DNA of 64,000 nucleotides from Escherichia coli (lineage in GTDB: Bacteria > Pseudomonadota > Gammaproteobacteria > Enterobacterales > Enterobacteriaceae). How positions within the stretch are numbered: the first letter of the stretch is position 1; each line of letters starts with the position of its first letter. The position numbers were made by a program, and so were the translations under genes. The notes under the pieces were generated by a model. That model had not been told where the DNA came from. It made no database searches and saw only the letters and a program-made list of their open reading frames with translations. The stretch lies in assembly GCF_036507355.1 (NCBI RefSeq), contig NZ_AP027877.1, one strand, 5' to 3'. Below, in pieces: positions 23,579 to 25,140 of the stretch.

Positions 23579-24242
23579 TTCGCACCTCGCTGAATATACT
23601 CTTTGGTGAAATGAAACTCCTGCAGCGATTCCAGACGAACATCGCTGTACTCCATCACTGAATAGTTATTGCCGTGACGGACGTCGGTAACGGTTATTTT
23701 CATGGGTCGCGTTTTCCCCAACACCGGCTGGAAATCCTGATACAACACTTCTTTTATTAACTGGTCATCCTGCGAGTAATAGGCTGCCTTCCACGGGCGA
23801 TTATCACCGTCTTTTTCAACGTAATAGATAACCTTCGGCCAGGTGATATCCGCCGATTTACGCACCAGCGCCAGCTTGTAACACTGCTTTTCAGCACACG
23901 TGACTTCCCCCACCAGGGTCGAGTCATAGGCATATTCAAAGTTAGTGACAATGACATCGCCGTTAGAGATTTGCCCAATTAATCTTTGTTGCCGTGAAAT
24001 AGGCATAGGACGTCGCAGTTCCGGCGTGTAAAACCATAAATCGTACCAGTCGGAAAGCATGATTTTTCCTTTATCTCGCGGCGGATAAATAAAACGCACC
24101 AGCGAGCGTGCATCCGCTTTTTCATTACCCTGCGGTTTCATAAAGCGCATGGAAATATCGAGGACCTGTTTATTCTCTGGCTGGGTTGTGCCCGCTTTAT
24201 ATTCCGTTACCGTCAGCGTGTAACGAAACGGTTTATTCGGCG
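23575..24242 (-). pseudogene. LolA-like periplasmic protein gene, C-terminal part, split by IS1
   Basis: Frame stays open upstream of the annotated Met to the IS1 junction and continues in frame across the IS1 once one target-site-duplication copy is removed. Confidence 0.65.
24234..24242. repeat. IS1 target-site duplication, left copy (TATTCGGCG)
   Basis: 9-bp direct repeat identical to 25011..25019. Confidence 0.85.
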
Positions 24243-24297
24243 GGTGATGCTGCCAACTTACTGATTTAGTGTATGATGGTGTTTTTGAGGTGCTCCA

Positions 24298-24573
24298 GTG
24301 GCTTCTGTTTCTATCAGCTGTCCCTCCTGTTCAGCTACTGACGGGGTGGTGCGTAACGGCAAAAGCACCGCCGGACATCAGCGCTATCTCTGCTCTCACT
24401 GTCGTAAAACATGGCAACTGCAGTTCACTTACACCGCTTCTCAACCCGGTACGCACCAGAAAATCATTGATATGGCCATGAATGGCGTTGGATGCCGGGC
24501 AACAGCCCGCATTATGGGCGTTGGCCTCAACACGATTTTACGTCACTTAAAAAACTCAGGCCGCAGTCGGTAA
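24298..24573 (+). CDS. insA: IS1 InsA
   Basis: 91-aa zinc-finger protein [23 protein letters not shown]. Confidence 0.95.
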
Positions 24574-24995
24574 CCTCGCGCATACAGCCGGGCAGTGACG
24601 TCATCGTCTGCGCGGAAATGGACGAACAGTGGGGCTATGTCGGGGCTAAATCGCGCCAGCGCTGGCTGTTTTACGCGTATGACAGGCTCCGGAAGACGGT
24701 TGTTGCGCACGTATTCGGTGAACGCACGATGGCGACGCTGGGGCGTCTTATGAGCCTGCTGTCACCCTTTGACGTGGTGATATGGATGACGGATGGCTGG
24801 CCGCTGTATGAATCCCGCCTGAAGGGAAAGCTGCACGTAATCAGCAAGCGATATACGCAGCGAATTGAGCGGCATAACCTGAATCTGAGGCAGCACCTGG
24901 CACGGCTGGGACGGAAGTCGCTGTCGTTCTCAAAATCGGTGGAGCTGCATGACAAAGTCATCGGGCATTATCTGAACATAAAACACTATCAATAA
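24492..24995 (+). CDS. insB: IS1 InsB (expressed as InsAB' transposase by -1 frameshift)
   Basis: 167-aa ORF overlapping insA. Confidence 0.9.
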
Positions 24996-25010
24996 GTTGG
25001 AGTCATTACC

Positions 25011-25019
25011 TATTCGGCG
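25011..25019. repeat. IS1 target-site duplication, right copy (TATTCGGCG)
   Basis: Identical to 24234..24242. Confidence 0.85.
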
Positions 25020-25140
25020 AACGAATTTCGTCAGCGCGACGAATTATCTCCAGCGCCTTATCATCTGTGCTCGCCGCCTGAACGCACGACGTAGCGAGCC
25101 ACAGGCAAGCAAACCACTTGCCGTAAAAAGCCATATTCAT
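25011..25140 (-). pseudogene. LolA-like protein gene, N-terminal part (signal peptide MNMAFYGKWFACLWLATSCVQAAS...)
   Basis: Reverse-strand translation from ATG 25140..25138 gives a signal peptide and joins in frame with 24242 downward. Confidence 0.6.

Follow-up and report, generated by a model that had tools for sequence, protein, structure and literature searches.

The gene described here lies on the minus strand of a 64-kb stretch of Escherichia coli DNA (the window) and is divided in two by an insertion sequence. Its 5′ fragment (25011..25140), which holds codons 1 to about 43, and its 3′ fragment (23575..24242), which holds codons 41-262 and the stop, were placed from the list of ORFs and by tblastn with reference residues 1-44 and 42-262, respectively. 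Between them, sequence reading and a scripted check gave a complete IS1 element of 768 bp (copy 1; 24243..25010, plus strand). A second IS1 (copy 2) lies 2.4 kb upstream of the split gene, and the genes around both elements belong to an accessory island.

IS1 copy 1 and its target site

The anatomy of copy 1 can be read directly. Its 5′ end is GGTGATGCTGCCAACTTACTGAT and its 3′ end ...GTTGGAGTCATTACC, the reverse complement of the right end being GGTAATGACTCCAACTTATTGAT, and canonical IS1 inverted repeats stand at both ends (IRL, 24243..24265; IRR, 24988..25010), each of 23 bp, with 18 of the 23 positions matching in a scripted comparison. The insA frame (24298..24573, plus strand; 91 aa), whose product is the N-terminal part of the IS1 transposase with its zinc finger and helix–turn–helix, matched the NCBIfam model NF033558 for IS1 family transposases (E = 7.5e-26) and the zinc-binding domain model NF050000, while the insB′ frame, a 167-aa ORF (24492..24995, plus strand), matched NF033558 at E = 1.8e-42 (145.6 bits, cut-off 100). 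In the profile search, InsA occupied positions 1-81 of NF033558 and InsB′ positions 75-199, and an A6C -1 frameshift motif, TTAAAAAACTC at 24547, joins the two frames. Because the ends, both transposase frames and the frameshift motif are all present, copy 1 is a complete and apparently functional element.

The element is abutted at both ends by exact direct repeats of 9 bp, TATTCGGCG (24234..24242 and 25011..25019). The identity extends over exactly 9 bp, because the tenth base differs, and a 9-mer would match exactly at a fixed offset by chance with a probability of about 4e-6. A 9-bp target duplication is typical of IS1. The empty site was seen directly in other genomes, where TATTCGGCG occurs once: the flanks of copy 1 in the window map to 1..4273 and 4265..6680 of contig L002 (strain TB06052), with an overlap of 9 bp. 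The position that the earlier note gave for the IS1, with its exact 9-bp duplication, was thus correct to the base.

With its length of about 768 bp, imperfect repeats of about 23 bp, insA/insB′ frames with the A6C motif and 9-bp duplication, copy 1 has the features by which the IS1 family is recognized, and DNA matching it is named ‘IS1-like element IS1A family transposase’ in RefSeq. Its first 158 bp, the part used for searching, showed at least 99% identity to IS1 in thousands of E. coli records, and in a search of complete E. coli genomes the median genome had IS1 at 10 places. Copy 1 is therefore no different in kind from the IS1A and IS1-like elements of E. coli and Shigella; only its insertion site is particular to it, the junction of element and gene being absent from all 5,426 complete E. 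coli genomes. The 30-nt left junction likewise had no match in the GTDB species-representative genomes.

The gene rejoined across the insertion

Removal in silico of the element and one copy of the repeat gave a single open minus-strand frame of 262 codons, running from 25140 to 23575, in which the script found neither a stop nor a frameshift; the insertion point lies at codons 41-44. The track of ORFs misses the true N-terminus because it lists just two pieces on this strand, a 44-aa ORF (25006..25140), which gains one extra codon and then meets a stop inside the IS1, and a 191-aa ORF (23575..24150), which starts at an internal methionine, Met72, at 24150. The signal-like peptide MNMAFYGKWFACLWLATSCVQAAS is encoded on the 5′ fragment. 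The earlier note had said that the halves could be rejoined in frame, as excision and re-translation would reveal, and that the ORFs alone conceal the start of the protein; all of this was borne out, while the product, which it had put at about 250 aa, has 262.

Uninterrupted counterparts are common. Of the 389 complete E. coli genomes in which the rejoined stretch of 1,224 nt occurs, 382 have it in one continuous place, with 98.8-99.3% identity among the matches listed, and a probe of 400 nt with the insertion point at its middle was continuous in 383 of the 386 complete genomes that carry the stretch. These include EDL933, where the LolA-like and permease genes are annotated at the continuous empty site. 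The RefSeq orthologue, a 262-aa ‘outer membrane lipoprotein-sorting protein’, begins at the same ATG as the rejoined gene, and eight independently called contigs likewise give 262 aa; the N-terminal segment deduced in the earlier note is thus present in the orthologues with which it had proposed a comparison. The rejoined protein differs from its closest orthologue, WP_040234654.1, at three residues (D27N, T59A and Q248P) and from WP_001055491.1 at four. Locus, neighbours, start codon and length of 262 aa are all shared with these two proteins, from the OI-47-type island (EDL933); the differences are that the gene in the window is split by IS1 and that 25.4 kb, most of the island, has been deleted. 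Over 24 kb, the window is 99.1% identical to O55:H7/O157:H7. Exact-protein look-ups for the 191-aa ORF, the 462-aa protein encoded downstream and a 399-aa fusion of EAL-domain and IS1 sequence returned no record.

The only Pfam match of the rejoined protein was to PF17131, LolA_like (E = 1.9e-35), in which residues 84-259 aligned with model positions 2-184 of 184. Among solved structures, the best relative was the chain in PDB entry 3BUU, named by its depositors ‘uncharacterized LolA superfamily protein NE2245’, which aligned in sequence with residues 29-259 (E = 4e-33), and there was no NCBIfam match at E ≤ 0.001, the LolA model included. On these matches, we class the rejoined protein as a member of the LolA_like/TP_0789-like family and not as a LolA orthologue. 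The description ‘LolA-like’ in the earlier note holds in the sense of PF17131, but not for LolA proper, for which neither NCBIfam nor Pfam gave a match. Because the alignment to 3BUU starts at residue 29, the start of the fold lies on the upstream side of the insertion point, which leaves the 191-aa ORF without the signal peptide and without about 43 residues of the fold (29-71).

Inspection of hydrophobicity and motifs at the N-terminus showed a lysine at position 8 and, directly after it, a hydrophobic stretch covering residues 9-22. Cleavage might occur between VQA and AS, as in a soluble periplasmic protein, or within a relaxed lipobox, between LATS and C19, as in a lipoprotein; the same motif inspection found no strict lipobox. 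The hydrophobic N-terminus makes export of the intact protein likely, in keeping with the signal peptide and secreted product claimed previously, and it would fit a soluble periplasmic protein or a lipoprotein. A further likeness to the LolA system is that the gene adjoins genes for a LolCDE/MacB-type ABC transporter, and the intact protein would plausibly be a periplasmic carrier of hydrophobic cargo in the fashion of LolA. In contrast with LolA, it may carry a lipid product and not lipoproteins, because the gene sits in a fatty-acid/polyketide-like cluster, and by analogy with Lol its probable task is to take a hydrophobic product onward from the ABC exporter in the direction of the outer membrane.

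The island and the deletion at IS1 copy 2

The accessory island lies between tRNA-Ser/ycdU and dgcT-pgaABCD, about 7 kb of it is left in the window, and its gene order is identical to that in O55:H7 DEC5B and in strain TB06052, collinear with the references. Both location and gene order are those of an OI-47-type island, to which we assign it. OI-47 of EHEC O157:H7 EDL933 is given as 31.7 kb, z1528-z1556 (PMC8565820). The intact operon, which in O55:H7 DEC5B occupies 1385..15195 of contig L011, reads, in minus-strand order, acpS, SDR, FabZ, ACP, GcvT-like, two ketosynthase genes (one of which, in O55:H7 DEC5B, encodes 852 aa with a double KS domain), a hypothetical gene, the LolD-like ABC ATPase, the 218-aa protein, the MacB/LolCE-type permease, the LolA_like protein, the 462-aa protein, a malonyl transferase and ycdU. 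What remains of it in the window is 21235..27426.

Three neighbours of the split gene in this remnant, all on the minus strand, are intact. The gene downstream (22190..23578) encodes a hypothetical protein of 462 aa with a signal-like N-terminus; its start overlaps the stop of the LolA-like gene by 4 bp, which suggests that the two share an operon. The 462-aa protein had no match in NCBIfam or Pfam, and a role as an outer-membrane partner is only a guess. Upstream is the MacB/LolCE-type ABC permease of 436 aa (25149..26459), which matched TIGR02212 (lolCE) at E = 3.6e-26, below the cut-off of that model; an identical protein carries the Pfam domains MacB_PCD and FtsX. The hypothetical protein of 218 aa encoded next in the same operon (26460..27116) had no match in NCBIfam, the sole library run on it.

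Beyond these genes, the operon ends abruptly at IS1 copy 2 (27427..28194, minus strand), which is inverted with respect to copy 1 and identical to it at 767 of 768 positions, the one mismatch being G486T. There is no target-site duplication at copy 2. Window positions 25011..27426 map to 4265..6680 of the TB06052 contig L002, and those from 28195 onward map to 32071 onward, so that 25.4 kb (6681..32070 of that contig) are missing exactly at copy 2. On one side of the element, the LolD-like ABC ATPase gene is cut off, leaving a 3′ remnant (27103..27426, minus strand; residues 128-235 of 235; partial match to TIGR02211, LolD, E = 6e-30) from which the Walker-A half is deleted. On the other side, the deletion truncates the gene for the OI-47 EAL-domain c-di-GMP phosphodiesterase to a 5′ remnant (28195..29389, minus strand; residues 1-399 of 536). 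Besides the 5′ half of the ATPase gene and the 3′ end of the gene for the EAL protein, the deletion took all the biosynthetic genes, among them those for the ketosynthases, ACP, FabZ, SDR and AcpS, as well as a two-partner secretion pair, a fimbrial operon and grvA. The copy 2 junction is absent from all complete E. coli genomes. One contig, L009, was considered as a sister carrying copy 2 only, as it breaks in the ABC ATPase gene, yet its sequence runs 68 nt beyond the copy 2 site with no IS1, and it is therefore unrelated to the copy 2 event.

The closest relatives of the island differ on the two sides of copy 1: positions 19970..24242 are 99.3% identical to TB06052 and 99.0% to L009, compared with 97.7% and 99.7%, respectively, for 25011..27426. 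This suggests a recombination mosaic in the island near the insertion point, probably unrelated to IS1.

All other genes in the window are full length compared with those of O55:H7; the decay is confined to the accessory island, and the flanking core genes are intact. Some variation of other kinds was seen along the window. Between phoH and efeB, a unit of about 120 bp (38929..39056) matches three adjacent places in TB06052 (L002, 42910..43127 onward) at 90-98%; this tandem, REP-like intergenic repeat is variable, and the window has fewer copies of it than TB06052. Just upstream of wrbA, O55:H7 DEC5B has a transposase of the IS3 family and a fragment of a recombinase (joined locus, about 81985..83908). 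Both are missing from the window, which has wrbA at 57982..58578 and an unoccupied site at 57994..58003. The genes for a 447-aa hypothetical protein (43559..44902) and yccE (60398..61654) are local hypervariable loci, far more divergent from O55:H7 (93.7% amino acid identity for the former and 87.4%, with two alignment gap positions, for the latter) than their neighbours (98-100%).

Origin and consequences of the split gene

Taken as a whole, the locus is almost certainly the product of an IS1 insertion that made a pseudogene of a LolA_like gene within an OI-47-type island dismantled by IS1. Copy 1 would have transposed into codons 41-44 of the 262-codon gene, duplicating the 9-bp target TATTCGGCG and parting most of the LolA_like protein from its signal peptide and from the beginning of its fold. 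The remainder, a 44-aa stub and a 191-aa ORF devoid of an export signal, would be a pseudogene, and we infer that the gene has lost its function. The 25.4-kb deletion at the second IS1 took the Walker-A half of the ATPase and all the synthesis genes, and the split gene would represent one step in the IS-driven loss of a dispensable island, while which of the two IS1 events came first, and when, is a matter of inference.

The insertion might instead do more than inactivate the gene. The 191-aa ORF, which is intact and holds the Pfam residues 84-259, could be expressed from a hybrid promoter at the end of the IS1; alternatively, as perfect 9-bp repeats are a substrate for rare precise excision of IS1, those around copy 1 are a possible substrate for a reversible switch. 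However, a search for promoter-like sites found no outward promoter facing the 191-aa ORF from the left end of copy 1, only the inward insA promoter of IS1 itself, and the product of this ORF would have neither the signal peptide nor residues 29-71 of the alignment to 3BUU. Moreover, rejoining the LolA-like gene would not restore a working system, because the partner ATPase and all the biosynthetic genes are gone. We consider this reading very unlikely. More improbable still is the form in which excision through the repeats, or expression of the leaderless 191-aa protein, gives a reversible or conditional function, or a cytoplasmic lipid-binding one, with the permease and the 218-aa and 462-aa proteins being re-used with another ATPase.

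We also considered whether the inverted pair of IS1 copies, with the intervening 2.4 kb (25011..27426), could form a composite transposon or mark an IS1-mediated inversion instead of two independent events, the repeats around copy 1 being coincidental. Such a reading would draw on the near-identity of the two copies (one mismatch) that bracket the segment, and on the segment differing from the left flank in its identity to TB06052 (97.7% versus 99.3%) and to L009 (99.7% versus 99.0%). However, all the references show this segment collinear and in an unchanged orientation, and it continues the left flank with an exact 9-bp overlap, from which we conclude that it is neither inverted nor foreign. 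Only copy 1 is bracketed by the duplication, which is not seen at the outer ends of the pair, and copy 2 has none and abuts the deletion. Because intact reference strains also show such identity differences among themselves, we regard them as ordinary island mosaicism. Collinearity rules this arrangement out for practical purposes, and we attach hardly any weight to it. Finally, the multiplicity of IS1 in E. coli (median, 10 places in a genome) and the uniqueness of the copy 1 junction among the complete E. coli genomes searched might point to an IS1 misplaced in the assembly of a repeat-rich genome, but this is barely credible, as misassembly would not yield an exact 9-bp duplication of a single-copy sequence at both ends of a full-length IS1 with the frame kept.

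For the insertion of copy 1, then, the description in the earlier note, of a simple event with a 9-bp target-site duplication, is upheld. The insertion is probably young, because the repeats are perfect, the halves of the gene undamaged, the two IS1 copies only one base apart and the junctions found in no other complete E. coli genome; ‘recent’, as had been suggested, is plausible. In the window lineage, nonsynonymous and synonymous changes numbered 3 and 3 in the LolA-like gene and 4 and 7 in the gene for the 462-aa protein, compared with 1 and 6, and 0 and 4, respectively, between intact strains. These counts, suggestive of relaxed selection on the remnant genes, are too small to use.

Because half of the ATPase and all the synthesis genes have been deleted, the whole module would no longer function, and the split gene is not an isolated knockout but a single lesion in an island in decay, a setting that the earlier note did not consider. 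In annotation, the ORFs of 44 and 191 aa should be joined and recorded as a single pseudogene, disrupted by IS1, for a LolA_like protein of 262 aa, and the neighbouring ATPase and EAL fragments marked as deletion remnants. The result is an ordinary IS1 pseudogene, every component of which is a known sequence and which calls for no new mechanism; the locus also illustrates cleanly how two IS1 events dismantled an OI-47-type island while the flanking core genes stayed intact. In the passages on OI-47 in the reviews searched, GrvA alone is discussed from this island, and on that part of the literature the product and the export route of the lipid-synthesis and Lol-like cluster appear uncharacterized. 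The degraded copy described here is not suited to such work, but an intact OI-47 cluster for lipid synthesis and Lol-like export may deserve study.
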